The notes beneath the pieces are model-generated. The model was not told where the DNA came from. It was given only the letters and a program-made list of their open reading frames with translations, and ran no database searches. 64,000 nt of DNA from Reclinomonas americana ATCC 50394 (lineage: Eukaryota). Positions within the stretch are counted from its first letter, which is position 1; each line of letters begins with the position of its first letter. A program made the position numbers and the translations under genes. The DNA lies in the NCBI GenBank assembly GCA_048213135.1, contig PS015009.1, positions 1,860,001-1,924,000 on the forward strand. Direction: 5' to 3'. This document shows, in pieces, positions 6,193-45,518 of this stretch.

Positions 6193-8149
6193 ATGACAAA
6201 TCATCACACTCTTGATATCAGGAAATTATCCACTGCAGGCTTCCTGATTGCGACAGGCATCGTGTTTGGCGATATTGGAACATCGCCACTTTACACATTT
6301 AAAGCAATTATACAGGATGCCCCGGTAAACAGAGCATTAGTGATGGGCAGCGTAAGCGCTGTCTTCTGGACACTTTTTTTCCAAACCACACTTAAATATG
6401 TGATCATTACCCTAAAGGCAGATAACAACGGTGAAGGAGGCATATTCTCCCTGTATACCCTCATTCGCCGTTACAGGAAATGGCTTATCGTTCCGGCATT
6501 GCTGGGAGGCTCGTTTCTTATGGCAGACAGCATTATAACACCTCCTATTTCAGTTACTTCTGCTATTGAGGGATTAAAGATGCAGTATCCGTCCATTCCC
6601 GTGATACCGATTGTACTTGTGATTCTTTCCATACTTTTTTTATTACAGGCAATGGGCAGCAGCAGGATCGGCAAAATATTTGGTCCTGCCATGATGATCT
6701 GGTTTACCATGATAGGGATTATGGGACTGTATGCATTGAGCAAAGATCTTTCAGTGCTGAAAGCAGTCAACCCGGTTTACGCTTTTCGTTTTGTTACAGA
6801 ATATCCCGGAGGTTTCTGGTTGCTGGGAGCCGTATTCTTATGCACAACCGGCGCAGAAGCCTTGTATAGTGACCTTGGACATTGTGGCCGTAAGAATATA
6901 GAAGCAAGCTGGACCTTTATCAAAATATGCCTGGTACTTTGTTATTTCGGGCAGGCCGCCTGGCTGGTGAATCATGAAGGGATGGTGATGGGCGATGTCA
7001 ATTCTTTTTTTGCCATGATGCCGGGCTGGATGTTCTGGCCTGCCGTATGCATAGCCACCGTGGCCGCGATAATCGCATCCCAGGCACTTATCAGCGGTAC
7101 CTTCACACTGATCAATGAAGCAATTCGATTAAACCTCTTCCCGAGACTTAATGTCATTTATCCCAGCGAGGTAAGGGGGCAACTATATATTCCCGCGGTG
7201 AACTGGGCCCTGTTTGCCGGGTGTATCGGCGCTGTGCTTTTTTTTTCGGGAGTCTAAAAATATGGAAGCTGCATTCGGATTGTCAGTTACACTTACCATG
7301 CTGATGACAACTGTGTTGCTTATTTTTTATATGTATTCCAAAAGAAGGAACCTCTTTTTCATAGTATCACTTACACTGCTTTTTCTTACAATTGAAACCA
7401 CCTTCCTGGTGGCAAACCTTCAAAAATTTAAAGAAGGAGGATTTATTACCCTGCTGCTTGGCCTTTTCTTATTCTGGGTGATGTTTACCTGGCAATACGC
7501 CGGAAAGATCAAAAACGGGCTGATCCGGTTTGTTGGCCTTAAACCGCACATACCCATGCTGGAAGCCTTGAGTAATGATAAAGAAATACCAAAATATGCC
7601 ACGCACCTGGTATACTTAACCAACAGTACGCGCCAGGAAAAAATAGAAGAAAGGATTATTGAATCGATTTATTATAAGTTTCCCAAACGGGCCGACCTGT
7701 ACTGGTTTGTGCATATACATGTAACCGACGAACCGTTTACAACCGAGTACAAGGCAGAAGTTATACAAAAAGATGAAGTGATGCGGGTGACATTCAACCT
7801 TGGCTTTCGTATTGTACCCCGTATTAATGTATTGTTTAAGAAAGTGCTGTCAGACTTATATGAACAAAAAGAATTCAATGTCTCTGATAGTCACAAATCT
7901 TTTTACCGGCATTTTCCCGCAGGCGAATACAGGTTCATTGTTTTTGAAAGCTACCTGAGCCAGGAAAACGAACTGCCGCTGTGGAAACGTGTTCCTATGA
8001 AACTCTATTTTATGCTGAAGTCGATAGAACTGGATTCAAAGCGATCGTTCGGGCTTGAGGAAAGCACGGTTACGGAAGAAAAACTTCCGCTGGTGATAGA
8101 ATCTCCGCAAAATATATACCTGAAAAGAATAACTGATTCATATGCCTGA
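6193..8149 (+). pseudogene. kup: KUP/HAK/KT potassium transporter, split by a +1 frameshift in a T9 run (7238-7246); probably a sequencing error in an intact gene
   Basis: GIVFGDIGTSPLY, ADNNGEGG and TGAEALYSDLGH in ORF 6193-7257; continues as FRESKNMEAAFG in ORF 7214-8149; removing one T joins them. Confidence 0.9.
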
Positions 8150-35577: not shown

Positions 35578-36861
35578 TTATTTTATGTCGAATAGTTCTT
35601 CCCACCGGGTAGTGTACCGCGGACTGCGCATTTCCATCCGCATCTTCCAGTCGCGTTTTGTACCTGCTGCGGCGAATTTCACCACTTCATCCCGCATAGC
35701 GAAATTAACATTGTCCAGCATCTGCATCAGCATCCGTTTACCGTTCTGTTTTTCCTCCACGAAAAGGTTACCCTGTATGGTGGCGTCGGGTACCAGTCCG
35801 CTCAGCATAACACCCGCTTTTTTATAAAGCGTTCCTTTTTCAAACAGGCGCCCGGCCATTTCCACAGCGGGTTTGATCAGTTCGTTGGTGGAAGAAGTGG
35901 CGATGGGCAGCGTGGTGTGCAGGCTGTGCGTTACCCCGCGGCGGAAACCCACATTGTGATTTTCTCCTTTTGCTACCACAAAAACACTGATGACCCTCGC
36001 GGCGCTGTGCTGCCGTCTTAATTTTTCCGCGGCCCTTGACGTATAGGTGGCCACTGCTTCGCGGATATCGTTCACGTTGCCTACATTATGCCCGAACATC
36101 CTGGTGGTGGCGATCATTTTTTTTGTTGTCAGTTCCTTTTCCATGTTTTTGGCCGGTTCTCCTTTCAGTTCTTTTATAAGCCTTACGCCAACTACCCCGC
36201 CCAGGTGGGTATGCGCCCAGGGTTCATTCTTTCTCGACAAGTCGAACGCCGTGAATACCGCATGCATGTCCCGCAGCTTTTCCGCGTACTGGTGCCCAAC
36301 ACCCCACACTTCGTTCACCGGAGTTTGCTGCAGGGCTTTTGCAATTTTTTCCGGGGTATCGAGTACAACAACGCAGTTGGTCCCCAGCTTATCTTTTTTA
36401 GCCCGGTGATTGGCCACCTTTGCCAATACCTTTGTGGGAGCCACTCCTACCGATACCTTAATACCCGTCCATTGTTCCACCGTTAACCGGATGTCGAGGG
36501 CCAGTTGCTGCAGGTCGGACGCGGTAAATTCATCCAGGTCCAGGAAAGCCTCATCCACCGAATACACTTCCACATTGTGTTTGCCCAGCATCACGCGAAG
36601 CGTTTCCATTACCCGCCAGCTCAGGTCGCCGTACAGGTTATAGTTCGAAGAAAAAGTGGCCACGTTGTTGGCTTCTATCACCGGCCTCGCTTCAAAGTAA
36701 GGTCCCGCCATGGGTATGCCCAGCGCTTTGGCTTCATCGCTGCGGGAAACGATACATCCGTCATTGTTACTGAGCACCACCACCGGCCGGTTGTCCAGGT
36801 GGGGCTTGAACAGGCGCTCACAGGAGCAGTAAAAATTGTTACAGTCTACGATCGCTTTCAT
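35578..36861 (-). CDS. umuC: Y-family DNA polymerase V catalytic subunit
   Basis: VDCNNFYCSCE, VVLSNNDGC, YSVDEAF, VWGVG, KAGVML, SPRYTTRW. Confidence 0.95.
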   Translation of the reverse strand: MKAIVDCNNFYCSCERLFKPHLDNRPVVVLSNNDGCIVSRSDEAKALGIPMAGPYFEARPVIEANNVATFSSNYNLYGDLSWRVMETLRVMLGKHNVEVYSVDEAFLDLDEFTASDLQQLALDIRLTVEQWTGIKVSVGVAPTKVLAKVANHRAKKDKLGTNCVVVLDTPEKIAKALQQTPVNEVWGVGHQYAEKLRDMHAVFTAFDLSRKNEPWAHTHLGGVVGVRLIKELKGEPAKNMEKELTTKKMIATTRMFGHNVGNVNDIREAVATYTSRAAEKLRRQHSAARVISVFVVAKGENHNVGFRRGVTHSLHTTLPIATSSTNELIKPAVEMAGRLFEKGTLYKKAGVMLSGLVPDATIQGNLFVEEKQNGKRMLMQMLDNVNFAMRDEVVKFAAAGTKRDWKMRMEMRSPRYTTRWEELFDIK

Positions 36862-36879
36862 GACGTTCTGTTTTATGCA

Positions 36880-37023
36880 TTACAAAAACCAGCCCCCGTG
36901 CAGTATGGCAGGGAACAGCATCTCATAGTCCCGTTTCTTTATTTTCGCCGGACGCTGTTTTTTTGGTTGCTGCACGCTTCGCCGGGGTTTTCCGGGCCGC
37001 GGTTTTGTTGGAGGGGTTCGCAT
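36880..37023 (-). CDS. 47-aa basic peptide between umuD and umuC (MRTPPTKPRPGKPRRSVQQPKKQRPAKIKKRDYEMLFPAILHGGWFL)
   Basis: Manual translation; fills the umuD-umuC gap in the same orientation. Confidence 0.4.
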   Translation of the reverse strand: MRTPPTKPRPGKPRRSVQQPKKQRPAKIKKRDYEMLFPAILHGGWFL

Positions 37024-37032
37024 GAGAAACGT

Positions 37033-37464
37033 TTAAAACTTCCTGATGGCGTAGATCACCACGCCCCATATTTTATAATCGTGGAATTCGGTGATCTCTA
37101 TCGGCGACAATCTTGTTGTATCCGGTATCAGCCTTACCTTATTGATCTGTTGTTCGTACCGCCTGATAAGCATTTCGCCGTCCAGTACCGCGATGACGAT
37201 CCTGCCATTGGTTGGTTTGAGGCTGCGGTCAACAATAACGATATCGCCTTCGGTAATACCGGCATTTTCCATGCTGTTGCCGTTAACCCGCATAAAAAAG
37301 GTGGCGGGTTTGTTGCGGATGAGCTGCTCGTTCAGGTCGATGCCCCGCTCCATATAATCGTCGGCCGCGGCGCCAAATCCCGTAGCGTTTGCCGTGGGTA
37401 CTTCCTGCTGGGTGAACCGCTTGGAACCGTTGTAACTGCTGCCGAAAAAATTTTCCACTTCCAT
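37033..37464 (-). CDS. umuD: UmuD-like S24 family protein
   Basis: GFGAAADDY..IDLNEQL, ATFFMRVNGNSM..AGI.EGD, IWGVV; upstream of umuC. Confidence 0.9.
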   Translation of the reverse strand: MEVENFFGSSYNGSKRFTQQEVPTANATGFGAAADDYMERGIDLNEQLIRNKPATFFMRVNGNSMENAGITEGDIVIVDRSLKPTNGRIVIAVLDGEMLIRRYEQQINKVRLIPDTTRLSPIEITEFHDYKIWGVVIYAIRKF

Positions 37465-37478
37465 AAAAATATTTTTAA

Positions 37479-37497
37479 TTACTAAATTATTTAGTAA
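37479..37497. promoter_or_regulatory. Palindrome TTACTAAAT-T-ATTTAGTAA (CTAA-N5-TTAG core), candidate SOS box
   Basis: 9-bp perfect inverted repeat between divergent umuD and the 2H gene; imperfect second copy CTAA-aatag-TTGG at 37505-37517. Confidence 0.7.
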
Positions 37498-37570
37498 ATT
37501 TATGCTAAAATAGTTGGTTGTGCAAATTTTTGAACACTTGATTTTTTAAATCACGATTAAATACAGGGTT

Positions 37571-38191
37571 ATGAAGAAGATCATCAACAGCATACCCGGT
37601 TACAGGGTATATGAATACCTGCTGGTGCTGAATCCCCACGAGGAATTACGCCAGCGCATCATGCAGGTGAAACAGGCTTTTTTTGACACGTACAAGGCGG
37701 GCACGGCCCTGTACAGCAAACCGCACCTTACGCTGGTGAACTTTGTACAGTATGAAATGATGGAGGAGCGCATCATCAACCGGTTACAGCTGATCACCAT
37801 GGGCTTCCAGCCGATCAAGGTGGAACTGAAGGATTTCGGCAGTTTCCCGGCGCACACCATCTATATCAATGTTACTTCCAAAATGCCCATCCAGGGACTG
37901 GTGAAATCGGTACGTGCCGAAACACAGCGGCTGATGAAACTTAATGATGACCACAAACCGCATTTCATGCTGGAGCCGCACCTCACCATTGCCCGGAAAC
38001 TGCAACCCTGGCAATATGAGCAGGGATGGCTGGAGTACAGTCACAAACATTTCACAGGGCGTTTCATCGCGGATGCCATGCTGCTGCTGAAAAGACCGGT
38101 GGGTGAAATGAAATACGAGATCATCCGGCGTTTTGATTTCCAGAACCTCCCGGTAAGTACGAAGCAGGGTGACCTGTTCGGTGGTATATAG
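37571..38191 (+). CDS. 2H phosphoesterase (2'-5' RNA ligase family)
   Basis: Two HxT motifs (PHLTLV, PHLTIA); C-terminal QGDLF. Confidence 0.88.
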   Translation: MKKIINSIPGYRVYEYLLVLNPHEELRQRIMQVKQAFFDTYKAGTALYSKPHLTLVNFVQYEMMEERIINRLQLITMGFQPIKVELKDFGSFPAHTIYINVTSKMPIQGLVKSVRAETQRLMKLNDDHKPHFMLEPHLTIARKLQPWQYEQGWLEYSHKHFTGRFIADAMLLLKRPVGEMKYEIIRRFDFQNLPVSTKQGDLFGGI

Positions 38192-38410
38192 CGTGCGATA
38201 AAAGCTATGTGCTTTGCACCTTCACCTGAATAACCTGTATAATCCGAAATGAACGCCACACACTTTGTACCCGGTGTGGTGATGGCCCGTTTTTAATCCG
38301 GCTACCCAACTTAAAAGCAAGAGTTTAAGAACATCCTCCACCCTCCGCAGGATAGTCAGCGACACCGTACCCGTCAATTATTCATTAACCGTATCATCAA
38401 CAAAAATCTT

Positions 38411-39521
38411 ATGTCCGGGAAACTTCAGCAGGATCATCATAAAGTGCAGGCGCAGCAACAGTCAGAGGAAAAACAATACCTCCATGGCCGCGGGGCGCAG
38501 ATCAATACAAAAAACCGCTTCCTCAAAAACGAGGTTACAAGGGAACACACAGAAGCCATCGACGATTGGGAAGAATCCAATGTTCCAACGCAATACCTCG
38601 AACAGCAATCGAAGACGATCGTGAATAAAGTGGAAAGTAAGGATGTAGGCATGGGGTACAGCATGAACCCTTATGCGGGCTGCGAACACGGCTGCATCTA
38701 TTGCTATGCCCGTAATGTGCACGAATACTGGGGATACAGTGCAGGACTGGATTTCGAACGAAAGATCATTATCAAAAAAAAACGCCCCGCAACTGCTGCG
38801 TAAATTCCTGATGCACCCCAAGTGGGATGCCACACCCATCATGCTCAGCGGCAATACCGACTGCTACCAGCCCGCTGAACAAAAATACCGGCTCACCCGC
38901 GGACTGCTTGAGGTATGCAACGAGTTCAACCAGCCTGTGGGCATACTTACCAAAAACTCGTGGATACTTAAAGACAAAGATGTACTGCAGGAAATGGCAA
39001 AGAAGCAGATCGTTTCGGCGATGGTGTCCATCACTTCTTTCAACGAAGACCTGCGCCGTATTATGGAACCCCGCACTACAACGGCCAAACAAAAATTGAA
39101 AGTGATAGAAGAACTCAGCAAAGCGGGCGTTCGTATGGGTATTATGATGGGGCCTATGATACCCGGTTTGAATGAGCACGAAATGCAACGCATCATGAAA
39201 GCCGCGGCCGACAATGGCGCCACGTTTACCGCATATACGTTCATCCGACTCAATGGCGCTATCAAATTTTTATTCCACGACTGGCTCTATAAAAACTTCC
39301 CCAACCATGCGGATAAAGTATGGCACCTCATCGAGCAAAGCCACGATGGCAAAGTGAATGATACCCGCTGGGGTGTTCGCATGCGGGGCGAAGGCAATAT
39401 CGCCGAACTGGTAGCGCAGCAATACAAAAAGTATGGGAAACTCTACAACATGAATGCGGAAGAGTGGAGCTTGAATTCGAAGTTGTTCAGGAGGCCGGGA
39501 GAGCAGGGGAAGTTGTTTTAA
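38411..39521 (+). pseudogene. PA0069/SplB-like radical SAM protein, split by a +1 frameshift in an A9 run (38774-38782); probably a sequencing error
   Basis: NPYAGCEHGCIYCYAR (CxxxCxxC); continues as NAPQLL..SGNTDCYQPAE..EPRT; C-terminal QGKLF. Confidence 0.88.
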
Positions 39522-39611
39522 TTTTTTCAAAAATAAGATATCTTGTAACCATTGATTTTACTGCTGTTCCCGGCGATGTGAAAATCAAATAAAAATATTT
39601 TTAAAAATAAA

Positions 39612-39644
39612 TTTGGCAAATCAGAAAAAATATTTTCATCTTTG
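39612..39644 (+). promoter_or_regulatory. Bacteroidota primary-sigma promoter of the leader/tRNA transcript
   Basis: TTTG (39612-39615), 21-nt spacer, CATCTTTG (39637-39644), close to the -33/-7 TTTG..TAnnTTTG consensus. Confidence 0.6.
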
Positions 39645-39676
39645 CATCGCAAATAAAAATTTTAAAACAACAAAAC

Positions 39677-39769
39677 ATGCTACGCAATATTTCACTCATA
39701 GGAGCGCAAAGCGGGTACAGCCACAAGGGCTTTGATACCACGTGCGGGGCATGTTATGCTGAAGGATAG
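39677..39769 (+). CDS. Putative leader peptide 1 (MLRNISLIGAQSGYSHKGFDTTCGACYAEG)
   Basis: ATG after an A-rich initiation region; followed by a terminator whose 5' arm is complementary to 39744-39750 inside the ORF. Confidence 0.6.
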   Translation: MLRNISLIGAQSGYSHKGFDTTCGACYAEG

Positions 39770-39794
39770 TACCAAAACTGATTCGCTATAACAC

Positions 39795-39822
39795 AAGCCC
39801 CGCCTGAGATGCGGGGTTTTTT
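39795..39822 (+). terminator. Intrinsic terminator / attenuator 1
   Basis: aagccccgc-ctgagat-gcggggtt followed by a T run. Confidence 0.85.
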
Positions 39823-39873
39823 ATTATCCCGATCTCCAAAACCGGGTGGAAGTTCCGGCGTTCAAAAAAACAG

Positions 39874-39984
39874 ATGATGACACGACAATATAAACGATTT
39901 ACAGCCAATGGCCGGTTGTTCGCAAAAAAAATGCGAATACACGGCGCCGGTAGTAATGATAAACCTAACAACGACCGAAGTTGA
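39874..39984 (+). CDS. Putative leader peptide 2 (MMTRQYKRFTANGRLFAKKMRIHGAGSNDKPNNDRS)
   Basis: Manual translation; four CGA codons; CGACCG (39972-39977) is complementary to the next terminator arm. Confidence 0.55.
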   Translation: MMTRQYKRFTANGRLFAKKMRIHGAGSNDKPNNDRS

Positions 39985-40013
39985 ACAGGTAAGGTATAGC
40001 CATGCCTTCTTGC

Positions 40014-40045
40014 AGCCCGGTCGCCAGTAACGACCGGGCTTTTTT
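40014..40045 (+). terminator. Intrinsic terminator / attenuator 2
   Basis: agcccggtcg-ccagtaa-cgaccgggct followed by TTTTT. Confidence 0.85.
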
Positions 40046-40072
40046 ATGCCCGAAAATAAAAGGAGGTATGAC

Positions 40073-40207
40073 ATGAAATTTTTAGCGATTGTATTGATCA
40101 TCAGGATCATCATCGCTTTGCTCCATAAAGAAAAAAACGAAGCAGCAAACGATGACGTCAGCAGGAACGAGGTAAGGCATCCTGCCGAGTTCAGGTTAAG
40201 GTATTGA
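40073..40207 (+). CDS. 44-aa peptide with hydrophobic N-terminus (MKFLAIVLIIRIIIALLHKEKNEAANDDVSRNEVRHPAEFRLRY)
   Basis: AGGAGGT Shine-Dalgarno at 40061-40067; all five Arg codons are AGG; followed by a hairpin and T run at 40221-40260. Confidence 0.5.
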   Translation: MKFLAIVLIIRIIIALLHKEKNEAANDDVSRNEVRHPAEFRLRY

Positions 40208-40281
40208 GTGCAGAAAGGAGAGAACGGGCGACCCTGTATTAGCCGCAGGGCCCCGTTTTTAAAATCCTGTCAAACGCACCT

Positions 40282-40352
40282 GTTGTCTTTAGCTTATTGG
40301 CAAAGTACTGCACTGTGAATGCAGGGAACAGGGTTCGATTCCCGGAGACAAC
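40282..40352 (+). tRNA. tRNA-His(GUG), T-stem one base short
   Basis: G-1:C73 pair, acceptor ttgtctt/gagacaa, anticodon arm ctgca-ctGTGaa-tgcag, TTCGATT loop; no encoded CCA. Confidence 0.8.
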
Positions 40353-40364
40353 CCCGGAAGATAA

Positions 40365-40458
40365 TACGGCCTGGTGTAAGGGTAACATGACCAGCCTCCT
40401 TCCTTTCTGGAAGGTAAACACAGGCGGGATGTTTCCGGTTCAAATCCGGAGGTCGTAC
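40365..40458 (+). ncRNA. tRNA-like element with normal acceptor/D/T arms and an expanded structured anticodon region
   Basis: tacggcc/ggtcgta acceptor, tccgg-TTCAAAT-ccgga T arm; anticodon region replaced by gcct-ccttcc-tttct-ggaagg-taaacac-aggc. Confidence 0.65.
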
Positions 40459-40467
40459 AAAGATGAA

Positions 40468-40513
40468 AGTATTACCGGGGGTGCGGTGCCGGGTAATCCC
40501 GGCCGGTAATACT
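40468..40513 (+). ncRNA. Minihelix-like degenerate tRNA remnant
   Basis: agtattaccgg/ccggtaatact stem enclosing ccggg-taat-cccgg; related to 40623-40687. Confidence 0.4.
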
Positions 40514-40519
40514 GTATTC

Positions 40520-40591
40520 TGCGGCCTGGTGTAATGGTTAGCACGCCACTCTTATAAGGTGGTGATCCCGGTTCAAGTCCGGGGGCCGCGA
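40520..40591 (+). tRNA. tRNA-Ile(UAU)
   Basis: tgcggcc/ggccgcg acceptor, gtgt/gcac D stem, ccact-ctTATaa-ggtgg anticodon arm, cccgg-TTCAAGT-ccggg T arm; no encoded CCA. Confidence 0.85.
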
Positions 40592-40622
40592 CAAAAGGAA
40601 GGAGCAGGTAAGTGATTAAAAT

Positions 40623-40687
40623 ATTACCGGGTGGTGTATTGGAGAGTTCACCAGGCTTTGGCCCCGGGTTATGCCCGGCCCGGTAAC
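40623..40687 (+). ncRNA. Degenerate tRNA-like element (possible Gln-UUG remnant)
   Basis: ttaccggg/cccggtaa acceptor-like stem, gtg/cac D-like stem, ggc-tttg-gcc mini anticodon arm, ccggg-ttatg-cccgg T-like arm. Confidence 0.45.
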
Positions 40688-40689
40688 AA

Positions 40690-40761
40690 GGCGGTCTGTT
40701 GTAACGGTAACCTACTACTCTCATAAGGTAGATGATCCCGGTTCAAATCCGGGGGCCGCAA
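40690..40761 (+). tRNA. tRNA with CAU anticodon (Met or Ile2), weak D stem, G1:A72 mismatch
   Basis: ctact-ctCATaa-ggtag anticodon arm, cccgg-TTCAAAT-ccggg T arm; close paralogue of the UAU tRNA. Confidence 0.72.
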
Positions 40762-40766
40762 CAAAA

Positions 40767-40839
40767 TGGTTCGTAGCTCAATGGTGAGAGTACCCGGCTT
40801 TTAACCGGGGGGCTGTGCGTTCGAATCGCACCGGGCCAG
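40767..40839 (+). tRNA. tRNA-Lys(UUU)
   Basis: tggttcg/cgggcca acceptor, gctc/gagt D stem, cccgg-ctTTTaa-ccggg, gtgcg-TTCGAAT-cgcac; no encoded CCA. Confidence 0.9.
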
Positions 40840-40902
40840 CAAAAGAAACAAGGTTGCAGGGTAGTGCATTTTCATCCTCCGGTAACCGCAAAAAATAAAA
40901 CG

Positions 40903-41970
40903 ATGAACGATCAGCAAATGATAATTAATGCCAACAGCGTTTTTGCATCGCATTACCTCGACAGTAAGGCACTGTACATGTATGCTTTCAAAACGGTGCC
41001 CTGCGTGAGTTTTGTCAATCATATTGACGGTGAAAAAGCTTTTGACGCGGTAAAGGAAAAATATGGAACGATGATTTTGTCGGTACACCGTTACAGGAGC
41101 TACAACAGGAAAGACACACATGCGGATTTCGACGACACCCTGGTATTGCTGAGTAATAACTGCCTGCTGGAATTCGATTCAGGTTATTGTGAAATACTCC
41201 ACAATTACGGTTCCGAAGCATTCGTAAAAGACCTGACCGCTTTCCTGAAAACATTCAGGGAGCGGCAAAGGAAAAAACCGCTGGAGATCAACCTGATCGT
41301 TCGCAATGGCGGTTACCTGGAACTGAAGTCCATGGAAGTGAAAAAGACAGCCCTTGACCTGGGCCTGTTTTATGAAGATGATTTCAGGGAAACCGACACC
41401 ATCATCCGGCAAAGACTGAACCAGAAAAATGACAAAGGTATTGTACTGCTGCACGGGTTACCCGGCACCGGTAAAACAACTTACCTGCGCCACCTGATCG
41501 GGAAGATTAAAAAGAAAGTGATGTTCCTGTCACCCAATATCGCCGGAAGCCTGGTTGATCCTGAGTTCATCGACCTGCTGATCGACAACCCCAACAGTGT
41601 ACTGATCATTGAGGATGCGGAAAATATTATTATGGACAGGAGGAACAACAGCAATTCATCTGTATCCAACCTGCTGAATATATCCGATGGCCTGCTGGCA
41701 GACTTCCTGAATGTTCAGCTGATCTGCACTTTCAACAGTTCGCTTACGCTGGTCGACAGCGCGCTGATGCGTAAAGGGCGGCTGATAGCGAAATATGAAT
41801 TCGGCAAATTAGGCATCGGTAAAGCGCAGGCGCTGAGCGATCATTTGGGCAACAGCACCATCATCAACAAACCGATGACCATTGCCGAGATCGCCAACCA
41901 GCATGAGAAGGAGCAGCAGCCGGAAAGGGTCGAAGTGATCGGGTTCCGACGGGAAGAATTGATGAACTGA
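40903..41970 (+). CDS. AAA+ ATPase with uncharacterised N-terminal domain
   Basis: Walker A GLPGTGKT, Walker B LIIED, SNLLNISDGL, ALMRKGRL arginine finger; ATG40903 preferred. Confidence 0.9.
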   Translation: MNDQQMIINANSVFASHYLDSKALYMYAFKTVPCVSFVNHIDGEKAFDAVKEKYGTMILSVHRYRSYNRKDTHADFDDTLVLLSNNCLLEFDSGYCEILHNYGSEAFVKDLTAFLKTFRERQRKKPLEINLIVRNGGYLELKSMEVKKTALDLGLFYEDDFRETDTIIRQRLNQKNDKGIVLLHGLPGTGKTTYLRHLIGKIKKKVMFLSPNIAGSLVDPEFIDLLIDNPNSVLIIEDAENIIMDRRNNSNSSVSNLLNISDGLLADFLNVQLICTFNSSLTLVDSALMRKGRLIAKYEFGKLGIGKAQALSDHLGNSTIINKPMTIAEIANQHEKEQQPERVEVIGFRREELMN

Positions 41971-41979
41971 TGAATACCG

Positions 41980-43002
41980 CTAGCCGGGAATCTTATCATA
42001 CAACTCAGCCATCAGCCTTACTTTTTTCCTGATCTGCCTGACGATATTGGACGGGGATATGACCCTCAACCCTTCGCCAAAACCCATGAGTTCTCTTTCC
42101 AGTTCAAAATTGGGAATGACCTCTATACTGAAAAGGGTTCCGCCTTTTACCGGTTCGAGTGTTTTTTGCGAAGGGTGAATGGGCTTGGTTTTGATATAAG
42201 GAGCCTGGCGGTGGCTGGCCCAGAACACAATAAGGGTGGGCTTTTCGGCGAAGTTGCGGGTAACGCCCACAATATCCCTGAAATAAGTTTGGGCATCGAA
42301 ATTCCGGTGCTCTAGAAAAAGTTCGTCAGGATGAGGTTGTACCTGCTGGATACGATCAAGTGCGAAAGTGATCAATTCCTTTCCCTTTTTGATCATACCC
42401 AGCACAAACCAGCGGTTGCGGTATTCTTTAAGCAGGCATGGATAGAAGATGATGTCATTGGCCTGCCGGGCCTTGAAAGACTGGTAAGTTAATACAACAG
42501 TGGTACGTCCAACGATGGCTTTGTATAATACATCCAGCCATTCGATACCGGTGAGCAGGTCGTTCTTTTCAAAATCGATGACCGGCGATTGGGCATGCTG
42601 TTCACTGTAGATCTTGTCTTCCAGTTTATTGACCATTTCATTAACATCATTGAAATGCGTGAACCCTTTGAACTGGCGCAGGAGATGCGATACTTCCTGG
42701 AGGATGTTCAGGTCCTGGGAGGTAAGCGGGATATTGGTGATCGAGTATTCCGGGTCTTCGTAGCTGTAATATTTTTTTTCAGTTACGATGATCGGGGCGT
42801 TATACCCCAGTTTGTCGCTGCGCATGGCGTTGAGGTCAAGCCGTATGGTACGCAGACTTACACCCCTGTCGAGTCCTTCGTATTCATAAAGGGCATCATT
42901 GCAGGCATCAATTAGCTGCTCAATGGTCCATTTGCGGCGGCGGTTCTGAAGACATTTATCAATGGTCCGGTACCTGATCAGGGCGTTGCGGTTAACGGGC
43001 AT
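41980..43002 (-). CDS. WYL-domain transcriptional regulator (wHTH-WYL-WCX)
   Basis: N-terminal NRNALIRY..ID..L wHTH, P.LLKEYRNRWFVLG, FALDRI, C-terminal WCX; divergent from TROVE. Confidence 0.93.
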   Translation of the reverse strand: MPVNRNALIRYRTIDKCLQNRRRKWTIEQLIDACNDALYEYEGLDRGVSLRTIRLDLNAMRSDKLGYNAPIIVTEKKYYSYEDPEYSITNIPLTSQDLNILQEVSHLLRQFKGFTHFNDVNEMVNKLEDKIYSEQHAQSPVIDFEKNDLLTGIEWLDVLYKAIVGRTTVVLTYQSFKARQANDIIFYPCLLKEYRNRWFVLGMIKKGKELITFALDRIQQVQPHPDELFLEHRNFDAQTYFRDIVGVTRNFAEKPTLIVFWASHRQAPYIKTKPIHPSQKTLEPVKGGTLFSIEVIPNFELERELMGFGEGLRVISPSNIVRQIRKKVRLMAELYDKIPG

Positions 43003-43038: not shown

Positions 43039-43061
43039 ACTGTGCAAATAGATTGCACAGT
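43039..43061. promoter_or_regulatory. Inverted repeat ACTGTGCAA-N5-TTGCACAGT, candidate WYL operator
   Basis: Perfect 9-bp arms in the WYL/TROVE intergenic region, just upstream of an imperfect -7 element (GAgcTTTG). Confidence 0.7.
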
Positions 43062-43106
43062 TGTGTTGGAGCTTTGACTTATCAAACAAAAACAAAGGAG
43101 GTTACC

Positions 43107-44676: not shown

Positions 44677-44702
44677 TCAAATTAAAATATTAAAAGAAAG
44701 TA

Positions 44703-44822
44703 AGGATGTCGTAGAAATGGGTTACTTCGTCACCATAACAGGGGCCAGGGTCCCGGGCAACCGGGAAGAGGTGCAAATCCTCAGCTTGACAGCGGCCATT
44801 TCTCATTTCGCCTGTTACTCCT
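44703..44822 (+). ncRNA. Y-RNA-like unit 1 (degenerate tRNA-like insert)
   Basis: GGATGTCGTAG..GTTACTTCG 5' motif, CGCCTGTTACTCC 3' motif; insert has cccgg-gcaa-ccggg and gagg-TGCAAAT-cctc T-like arm. Confidence 0.7.
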
Positions 44823-44829
44823 GAACTCA

Positions 44830-44965
44830 TTGAGGTGTCGTAGTGCAGCATTGCTTTGGTAGAGCATCCCGTCACAGGCGGGAAGGCCGCAGGTTCAAGC
44901 CCTGCTCTTCCATTACAACCGGAAGATAGCTCAGCAAAACGCGGCTGCCCGCCTGTCACCCTCAA
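44830..44965 (+). ncRNA. Y-RNA-like unit 2 (tRNA circularly permuted at the D loop)
   Basis: ttgagg/cctcaa outer stem; insert order D3' (ggtagagc), anticodon arm (tcccg/cggga), T arm (gcagg-TTCAAGC-cctgc), loop-closed acceptor (tcttcc/ggaaga), D5' (tagctcag). Confidence 0.78.
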
Positions 44966-44971
44966 AACTTA

Positions 44972-45090
44972 TAAATGATGCCGTAGAGCAGGGTTACTTC
45001 GTAATTCATATGGCTAGAATGTTTCACTTCCGGTGAAAATGCAGCGGGTTCGACTCCCGCCATGTGCCCTGTTCGCCTGTTGCTCATTTA
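44972..45090 (+). ncRNA. Y-RNA-like unit 3 (unpermuted D-anticodon-T body, Gly-like UCC loop, no own acceptor stem)
   Basis: taaatga/tcattta outer stem; attc/gaat D stem, tttca-ctTCCgg-tgaaa, gcggg-TTCGACT-cccgc. Confidence 0.78.
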
Positions 45091-45098
45091 CAATAAAA

Positions 45099-45218
45099 AA
45101 AGGTGCCGTAGGGTAGCGTTACTTCGGCTCTGTTAGTTGAACGGTTACAACCATGCCGCGGCATGATGTGGGTTCGAATCCCATACAGAAAATACCGCAG
45201 CCCGGTTTATCGCCCTTT
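45099..45218 (+). ncRNA. Y-RNA-like unit 4 (unpermuted tRNA body, shortened anticodon loop)
   Basis: aaagg/ccttt outer stem; tctgt/acaga acceptor, gttg/caac D stem, catgc-cgcg-gcatg, gtggg-TTCGAAT-cccat. Confidence 0.78.
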
Positions 45219-45263
45219 CTGTTTTTTGCTATTTTCAGTGTAACAACTGATCCATATAAGATA

Positions 45264-45391
45264 TTACAGGTGTCGTAGAGAAAAGTTACTTCGACTATTA
45301 ATCGGCGGGTCGCAGGTTCGAGTCCTGCTCCTTGCAAAAAGGATAGCTCAGTTGGTTAGAGCAGCTACTTTTTTCGCCTGTTACCCTGTAA
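45264..45391 (+). ncRNA. Y-RNA-like unit 5 (YrlA-type T-acceptor-D order, residual Asn-like anticodon loop)
   Basis: ttacagg/cctgtaa outer stem; cga-ctATTaa-tcg, gcagg-TTCGAGT-cctgc, tcctt/aagga closed acceptor, gctc-agttggtta-gagc D arm. Confidence 0.85.
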
Positions 45392-45397
45392 CCGTAT

Positions 45398-45518
45398 CCA
45401 GGTGCCGTAGATAAAAGCTACTTCGTACAAAAACGATCCAACGCAGGTTCGAATCCTGCTCCCTGCAAAGGGATGGCTGAGTGGTTAAGCAGACTGCTTT
45501 TATTGTTTGTCGCCCTGG
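45398..45518 (+). ncRNA. Y-RNA-like unit 6 (YrlA-type T-acceptor-D order)
   Basis: ccagg/cctgg outer stem; gcagg-TTCGAAT-cctgc, tccct-gcaa-aggga, gct-gagtggtta-agc D arm. Confidence 0.83.

Follow-up and report, generated by a model that had tools for sequence, protein, structure and literature searches.

Two probable ribosome-coupled attenuators in series as a likely translation-stress switch for a tRNA and AAA-ATPase operon of Chitinophagaceae type

Two probable ribosome-coupled attenuators lie in series ahead of a small tRNA array in the 64,000-nt stretch of DNA analysed here (the window), and it is likely that they restrict transcription of the tRNAs and the adjoining AAA-ATPase gene mainly to times when translation fails broadly, tRNA shortage included. 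We regard such stall-gated tRNA transcription as likely because the layout is conserved in dozens of relatives and because the first reading frame samples many codon types; the units themselves are real and conserved, and probably functional. The evidence comprises the anatomy of the two units, the extent to which they are conserved, substitutions of coding type in leader 1, a codon diversity across the family that exceeds expectation and a link between this diversity and the size of the tRNA array.

In the proposed mechanism, the switch of which rests on folding models, a healthy ribosome behind RNA polymerase would reach codon ~21 of leader 1 and melt the antiterminator, and transcription would stop at terminator 1. 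Were the ribosome stalled early or absent, antiterminator 1 would instead capture the 5' arm of the terminator before the 3' arm had been made. A polymerase that had passed unit 1 would then face the same test at unit 2 before transcribing the tRNAs and the ATPase gene. Shortage of a tRNA whose codon occurs in the leaders would be one form of the failure sensed. We infer the stimulus, a benefit of unit 2 as an AND gate that lowers leak and a rescue role for the array tRNAs, which may replace damaged or depleted ones with the aid of the neighbouring RtcB and Ro60 repair genes.

The first-pass annotation of this DNA had described both leader ORFs, both terminators and both complementary cores (Table 1), and on rechecking all of its coordinates and counts proved exact, as did the composition given for ORF1 (27 different codons among 30, encoding 17 amino acids). 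A promoter had also been placed ahead of ORF1. A motif scan of positions 39400-40900 returned two matches, both 5' of ORF1, and no downstream promoter belonging to the tRNAs themselves; the promoter is a predicted one, called with the Bacteroidota consensus. In relatives, a loose match to the motif is found before the tRNAs, between the units, in 11 of 58 homologues, a figure that carries no chance control.

Table 1. Features of the attenuator locus and the inferred operon (window coordinates)
Feature	Position	Strand	Remarks
Promoter -7 element, Bacteroidota-type housekeeping (predicted)	39637..39644	+	motif scan; -33-type element 21 nt farther 5'
Leader ORF1, 30 codons	39677..39769	+	predicted sensing window, codons 2 to ~20
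Antiterminator 1 core GCGGGGC, codons 23-25	39744..39750	+	complement of GCCCCGC 39797-39803
Intrinsic terminator 1	39795..39822	+	
Leader ORF2, 36 codons	39874..39984	+	~30 nt and 7 nt missing relative to aligned homologues
Antiterminator 2 core CGACCG	39972..39977	+	complement of CGGTCG 40018-40023
Small predicted hairpin, gap between leader 2 and terminator 2	39986..40012	+	folds; similar hairpins seen in homologues
Intrinsic terminator 2	40014..40045	+	
Conserved 44-codon ORF	40073..40207	+	hydrophobic N-terminus, HPAEF-like C-terminal motif; first gene past the attenuators
Third hairpin, short U run	40222..40258 (region 40208-40262)	+	diverged homologue of a conserved hairpin
tRNA-His(GUG), low score	40282..40355	+	
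tRNA-like element, over-long anticodon arm	40365..40460	+	relaxed ARAGORN; fold
tRNA-Ile(UAU)	40520..40592	+	
tRNA with CAU anticodon, called Met	40690..40762	+	
tRNA-Lys(UUU)	40767..40840	+	
AAA+ ATPase	40903..41970	+	PF00004, E 1e-10; last gene of the inferred operon

Folding predicts that the antiterminator 1 helix reaches ~39770, with its partner strand at 39775-39804, and that the small hairpin 3' of leader 2 places the antiterminator 2 core beside the terminator arm. Taken alone, the complement in the window's unit 1 exceeds what shuffling produces (a perfect 7-mer in 40 of 2000 shuffles, the duplex energy in 14 of 2000) whereas that of unit 2 is not above chance (108 of 2000 for a perfect match and 527 of 2000 for duplex energy). 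A short ORF just 5' of a terminator is found only at units 1 and 2 among the 24 terminators on both strands of the window. A search of Rfam 15 named neither leader, with only tRNA reaching the gathering score beside two generic hairpin matches (E 1.4-2.5), and Pfam and NCBIfam searches likewise supplied no name for either.

The ATPase encoded at the locus shares 60-75% identity with proteins from Chitinophagaceae-type genomes, among which a quick tree also places it. The best 80 of 312 ATPase matches were taken as relatives, making, with the window, 81 Chitinophagaceae-type loci, and DNA profiles of the units were seeded from 40 of these in which both terminators are present. Conservation of the layout had been put forward as a check on the attenuation reading, and it is extensive: 72 of the 81 loci have unit 1, 62 have unit 2 and 60 have the two together, and eight of the nine loci without unit 1 are truncated. 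The conserved context of the units is 5' of the tRNA array and the AAA ATPase, often with RtcB or Ro60. Leader 1 could be called in 69 of 72 cases, the other three being those without a terminator call. It has 28-32 codons, starts with ATG in 67 of 69 and stops 14-32 nt 5' of the hairpin; the calling rule favoured starts near the expected position, so that start position is not independent of selection. Sixty-four of the 69 homologues have the TTTGC element no more than 60 nt 5' of the start codon. Leader 2, called in 60 of 62 units, is mostly 44-56 codons long, and its antiterminator core is read as Arg-Pro or similar in 50 of the 60.

Beyond these loci, a profile of the leader 1 peptide matches 73 of 251 sampled genomes of the family, with two matches in six of them, and the matches examined precede tRNA arrays, the ATPase, an RNase H-like gene, RtcB, TROVE or a MATE pump. 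A second copy of leader 1 was found neither in the assembly that contains the window (108 Mb, 16,441 contigs, the window's own contig exceeding 1.9 Mb) nor, at strong E-values, in five related genomes. Public sequencing runs contain this DNA: among the 20 of 24 runs listed, seven share at least half of its words, and the small shares in RNA runs do not count as evidence of expression. No conspecific copy of the locus was seen in metagenome contigs, since the exact 23-base ORF2 pattern had no match there and the closest metagenome ATPase is 76% identical to that of the window; no ATPase relatives were found in the viral contigs searched. For a more distant comparison, 301 genomes of the phylum were considered, of which 45 gave 58 rtcB matches, and 40 stretches upstream of these were retrieved. 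Sixteen of these 40 stretches contain the promoter motif, an ORF of 20-31 codons, an antiterminator and a terminator, compared with none of 40 on the opposite strand, and their paired sequences differ from those of the window yet stay complementary. A distant locus (L168:3868-4250) has two leader-terminator units of another sequence type in series, followed by two tRNAs, a band-7 gene and rtcB, which shows that the tandem layout recurs.

Is leader 1 translated? In a set of 48 leaders that are all 30 codons long, codons 2-21 have a pN/pS of 0.61 for all pairs, 0.48 for pairs of at least 70% identity and 0.41 at 80% or above, compared with 1.30 and 0.88 in the two shifted frames (the pairs are non-independent in these comparisons). 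Over codons 22-30, where the antiterminator lies, the ratio is 1.0-1.8, as expected where RNA pairing is the constraint. The substitution pattern supports translation of leader 1.

The overlap of ORF, antiterminator and terminator on which the first-pass annotation had based its proposal of ribosome-mediated attenuation is borne out as a conserved layout, with the support coming mainly from the relatives. The antiterminator cores are 87% (unit 1) and 86% (unit 2) paired across the family, and the complement reaches a duplex P < 0.05 in 58 of 69 copies of unit 1 and 44 of 60 of unit 2. Covariation exceeds that of shuffles for unit 2 (0 of 500), in an alignment in which the window row is misaligned; for antiterminator 1 it does not within the family (91 of 500), and the inner helix is only 54% paired. 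RNAalifold run on the family alignment returned the terminator but no consensus antiterminator.

The switch was modelled with minimum-energy folds of the nascent RNA under a ribosome mask. In unit 1 the terminator 5' arm is captured in 65 of 69 copies without a ribosome and in 68 of 69 with the A-site at codons 13-18, falling to 50 of 69 at codon 20 and to at most five of 69 from codon 21 onwards; in unit 2, capture goes from 53 of 60 without a ribosome to at most seven of 60 once the ribosome advances. The last permissive codon modelled for the window is 19-21 in ORF1 and 29-31 in ORF2, varying with the footprint assumed. The capture criterion is lenient, as ~40% of shuffled sequences pass it, and because of this weakness it was replaced by the complement-length and duplex tests given above. 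At equilibrium the terminator state is the more stable in 51 of 69 copies of unit 1 and 58 of 60 of unit 2, and in the window's unit 2 it is favoured by ~11 kcal/mol. Readthrough must therefore be kinetic, with the antiterminator winning by forming first. The model also predicts readthrough with no ribosome at all, and thus goes beyond early stalling alone.

The proposal that leader 1 is a general sensor and not an amino-acid-specific one also gains its support mainly from the relatives, whose leaders are over-diverse and free of codon runs. The first 23 codons encode a family mean of 16.7 amino acids, compared with 13.0 in gene windows and 13.6 in base shuffles. At least 19 amino acids are encoded there in 12 of 69 leaders (gene null 2e-5) and all 20 in four of 69, in two different orders, a result obtained in none of 200,000 gene windows. 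As the 23-codon cut had been picked after the consensus was seen, the test was repeated on codons 2-20 as defined by the model: leaders contain 14.8 amino acids and 16.5 codon boxes compared with 11.5 and 12.2 for genes, and against base shuffles the mean z is 2.1 for amino acids and 2.4 for boxes. Repeated amino acids tend toward different boxes. CTA, ATA, TCA and AGT are over-used, AUA making up 49% of leader 1 Ile codons against 23% in genes, although A-richness could partly explain this. When real leaders were set against hybrids in 30 disjoint nearest pairs (60 leaders), the real ones were the more diverse by 21 to 2 in amino acids and 23 to 1 in boxes, which points to compensation, with the proviso that local misalignment can mimic or inflate the effect.

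Diversity also follows the tRNA supply. The more tRNAs separate leader 1 from the ATPase gene, the more codon boxes the leader samples (rho 0.69, n=69); this tRNA count is at least ten in 21 of the 69 related loci and zero in 20. Phylogenetic contrasts of boxes with array size on a quick tree give r 0.44, with 44 of 59 contrasts of the same sign and the result surviving a branch-length control; a strict independent-pairs test goes in the same direction but is not significant (median p 0.125-0.25). A held-out metagenome set yielded 24 leaders from 54 loci with enough upstream DNA, 20 of them new and picked by position, one of which is probably a false pick that was kept. These 20 give z 2.5 for amino acids and 2.7 for boxes, none containing all 20 amino acids, and array size correlates with boxes at rho 0.51 (p 0.02) and with amino acids at rho 0.38 (p 0.10). 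Leader 2 is less extreme (z 1.4 for amino acids, 1.3 for boxes), and the distant rtcB leaders have a mean z of ~1, many of them not being diverse. Among loci with three tRNAs or more, 41 of 44 have unit 2, compared with 18 of 25 among the rest (p 0.03). We rejected the possibility that leader 2 adds to the set of codons sensed, as units in series must both be read through.

One reading of these data, to which we give about an even chance, is that Chitinophagaceae carry the pangram leader as a purpose-built, minimal roll call of tRNAs, 20-23 codons long and kept non-redundant by selection, with the second attenuator as backup, such that cleavage, uncharging or undermodification of any tRNA would switch on spare tRNAs and RNA-repair genes. 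If so, the leader would close a self-contained loop in which tRNA supply feeds back on itself as a defence against anticodon nucleases and starvation, and rtcB genes across Bacteroidota would be preceded by simpler versions of it. Our preferred reading likewise has leader 1 probably evolving as a compact checklist of tRNA species. The element would reveal selection acting on the non-redundancy of a peptide instead of its sequence. The purpose of the arrays would become testable, as leader codons would predict which tRNA losses induce the operon. It would also bear indirectly on how transcription and translation are coupled in Bacteroidota, and could serve as a compact natural reporter when translation is under stress.

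The copy in the window is a drifted member of this family. The first 23 codons of its ORF1 specify 16 amino acids, which is only mildly unusual (P=0.04), and codons 2-20 specify 13 (P=0.23) from 15 boxes (P=0.06), with C, E, M, P, T, V and W missing, while the diversity of ORF2 is ordinary (z 0.09 for amino acids, -1.0 for boxes). The last codons of ORF2 lie in another frame on account of the stretches apparently missing relative to homologues, and this end frame is found in three of 60 copies, but the ORF is still open across its antiterminator. Four tRNAs (His, Ile(UAU), CAU and Lys) are left in the array, beside a single aberrant element. In both leaders the switch point is preceded by codons that these tRNAs read (His CAC, Ile AUA and Lys), although His, Ile and Lys codons occur in most family leaders anyway. 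Read in this comparative light, the window's copy appears to have drifted together with its shrunken tRNA array, its leaders being among the less diverse members.

These observations bear on other explanations of the locus. The attenuators might report only global stalling, caused by antibiotics, damaged ribosomes or failed initiation, with the codon diversity an ancestral accident or an avoidance of starvation-specific runs. The modelled readthrough without a ribosome in 65 of 69 copies fits this, as do the distant rtcB leaders that share the layout and are often not diverse, the ordinary diversity of the window's own leaders and the persistence of leaders in the 20 of 69 loci that lack tRNAs ahead of the ATPase. 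We nevertheless think it unlikely, given that leaders with all 20 amino acids exist in two different orders, that real pairs are more diverse than hybrids and that diversity follows array size both after phylogenetic contrasts and in the held-out set.

Two further explanations concern one leader or one genome. Leader 1 could encode a specific arrest or trans-acting peptide, or could sense a handful of conserved codons (Arg CGC at 3, His at 7, Ile at 8 and Phe-Ser-Pro), as the pN/pS below 1 at codons 2-21, the several columns that are ~80-90% conserved and the presence of CGC at codon 3 in 34 of 48 leaders might suggest. Yet no residue is invariant, with only Met1 and the RNA-constrained Gly24 reaching 90% or more; several homologues read the antiterminator in another frame while keeping their length, and the HIE and FSP motifs are lost from the window's leader 1, all of which makes such a function highly improbable. 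The loss of ~30 nt and 7 nt from ORF2 with its rare end frame, the unit 2 complement that by itself is within chance, the diverged third hairpin and the array of four tRNAs and one aberrant element would, on the other hand, suit a system partly vestigial in the window genome, in which unit 2 terminates constitutively or is decaying, or a protein factor sets readthrough, and the reduced array is nearly silent. This is very unlikely in our view: ORF2 remains open from its start codon across the antiterminator, with the modelled switch persisting at codons 29-31, both terminators and both cores fit the family consensus, and the ATPase frame is intact.

How does the locus compare with known systems? 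In classical attenuators such as the trpL, hisL, thrL and ilv leaders, the position of the ribosome decides between mutually exclusive antiterminator and terminator structures, and the leader of vmlR in B. subtilis is described in the same terms (PMC9226507). These systems depend on runs of cognate codons or on an anti-antiterminator, and their induction needs leader translation; leaders of the window type have no codon run and are modelled to read through without a ribosome. An amino-acid-specific attenuator of the trp, his or thr type was therefore rejected: there is no run or enrichment of a cognate codon, the capture of the 5' arm without a ribosome (65 of 69 and 53 of 60 in the model) is not anti-antiterminator behaviour, and downstream lie tRNAs, the AAA ATPase, RtcB, TROVE, RNase H-like and MatE genes and no biosynthetic or synthetase operon.

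The logic appears closer to that of the whiB7 and PA5471.1 leaders, by likeness of mechanism and not by membership, the regulated genes being different. The whiB7/wblC leader of mycobacteria likewise combines a uORF, an antiterminator and an intrinsic terminator, with efficient translation leading to termination and stalling to readthrough; the composition of its uORF sets which starvation signals induce, and the M. smegmatis uORF includes every amino acid except Cys (PMC10274678). That uORF, to which no sequence relation is expected, is described as longer, Ala-enriched and single, and controls a transcription factor, whereas the window has a 30-codon leader with almost no repeats, doubled in series ahead of tRNA and RNA-repair genes. 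In Pseudomonas aeruginosa, the PA5471.1 attenuator lies ahead of the RtcB-like gene armZ and of prfH and is induced by ribosome-targeting drugs, defective tRNA and an early stop codon (PMC12057347, PMC13041342), with tRNA CCA defects acting on armZ through PA5471.1 codons (PMC13041342). It too is leader-peptide attenuation before an RtcB-like gene, but it is a single unit in Proteobacteria with efflux derepression as its output, and neither a tRNA array nor selection for codon diversity features in these descriptions as far as they were available (PMC12057347, PMC13041342).

In output, the nearest likeness is the trn operon of Anabaena PCC 7120, a supernumerary tRNA array described as silent until translation is impaired and co-induced with rtcB; Bacteroidetes are among the phyla named as carrying long tRNA arrays (PMC8421152). 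The array of the window has four tRNAs. Control in Anabaena differs in involving a protein repressor, TrcR (PMC10272220), and the main text of the trn account contains neither 'attenuat' nor 'leader' (PMC8421152). The available part of PMC11109978 mentions neither Bacteroidota nor rtcB. In the main texts of the open-licence papers and preprints searched, we found no description of the element, of attenuation acting on tRNA arrays or of any leader under selection to include all amino acids. Within general translation-stress attenuation the locus stands out by its near-pangram leader, by its tandem layout and by having tRNAs as output. It would offer a mechanism for switching on silent spare-tRNA arrays and RNA-repair operons in Bacteroidota, for which we found no such regulator described.

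The first-pass annotation had taken the tRNA cluster as the output. The tRNAs do follow the attenuators, but the output is better described as an operon comprising a small membrane-type ORF, the tRNAs and the AAA ATPase, and operons of relatives additionally hold RtcB, Ro60, an RNase H-like gene or a MATE pump. The conserved 44-codon ORF and the third hairpin, both between terminator 2 and the tRNAs, had been overlooked. The ORF has no match in Pfam or NCBIfam and is preceded by a GGAGG Shine-Dalgarno-like motif (40061-40066) that is present in many homologues too; a strong GGAGG motif also precedes Ro60 (43095-43102). Bacteroidota rarely use Shine-Dalgarno motifs, and those at the ORF and Ro60 could represent a second, translational layer of stress control. 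A profile of the third hairpin has matches in 36 of 81 loci, the window scoring only 14 bits; family members (for example L011, L012 and L017) have a GAUGCA loop, with an upstream UGCA as possible partner, and often UUUUCCA at the 3' end. It is without a match in Rfam.

Within the array, the tRNA-like element directly 3' of tRNA-His recurs in near-identical design in one relative (L021), and other arrays have unassigned tRNA calls at the matching position. tRNA-Ile with a UAU anticodon is rare in bacteria; it is present in 15 of 69 related arrays. The tRNA with the CAU anticodon is possibly Ile2, as its body resembles that of the Ile-UAU gene. G+C-rich hairpin spacers at 40468-40512 and 40624-40688 have similar ends, each lying ahead of a tRNA gene, and the same contig holds further tRNA genes outside the four-tRNA array. 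The ATPase gene, with its frame intact, faces a convergent WYL-domain gene at 41980, after which come TROVE/Ro60, tRNA-/Y-RNA-like repeats, two RlaP nucleotidyltransferases and RtcB.

Directly 5' of the locus, at 35578-39521, lie umuC, umuD, a 2H phosphoesterase gene and a PA0069-type radical SAM gene, so that DNA-damage genes adjoin the RNA-repair region. A frameshift close to a run of A interrupts the radical SAM gene (38411-39521), a possible assembly indel, and a second gene, at 6193-8149, is also read as two overlapping ORFs and may contain another. Between the divergent WYL-domain and Ro60 genes, a 7-bp inverted repeat with a 5-nt spacer (43041-43059) is a candidate operator of the WYL regulator. 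After the Ro60 gene, at 44700-45500, at least six repeated RNA units share a starting motif and tRNA-like arms; with weak matches to YrlA (E 2e-7, short of the gathering score) and to tRNA, they are probably a Y-RNA-like or tRNA-mimic array.
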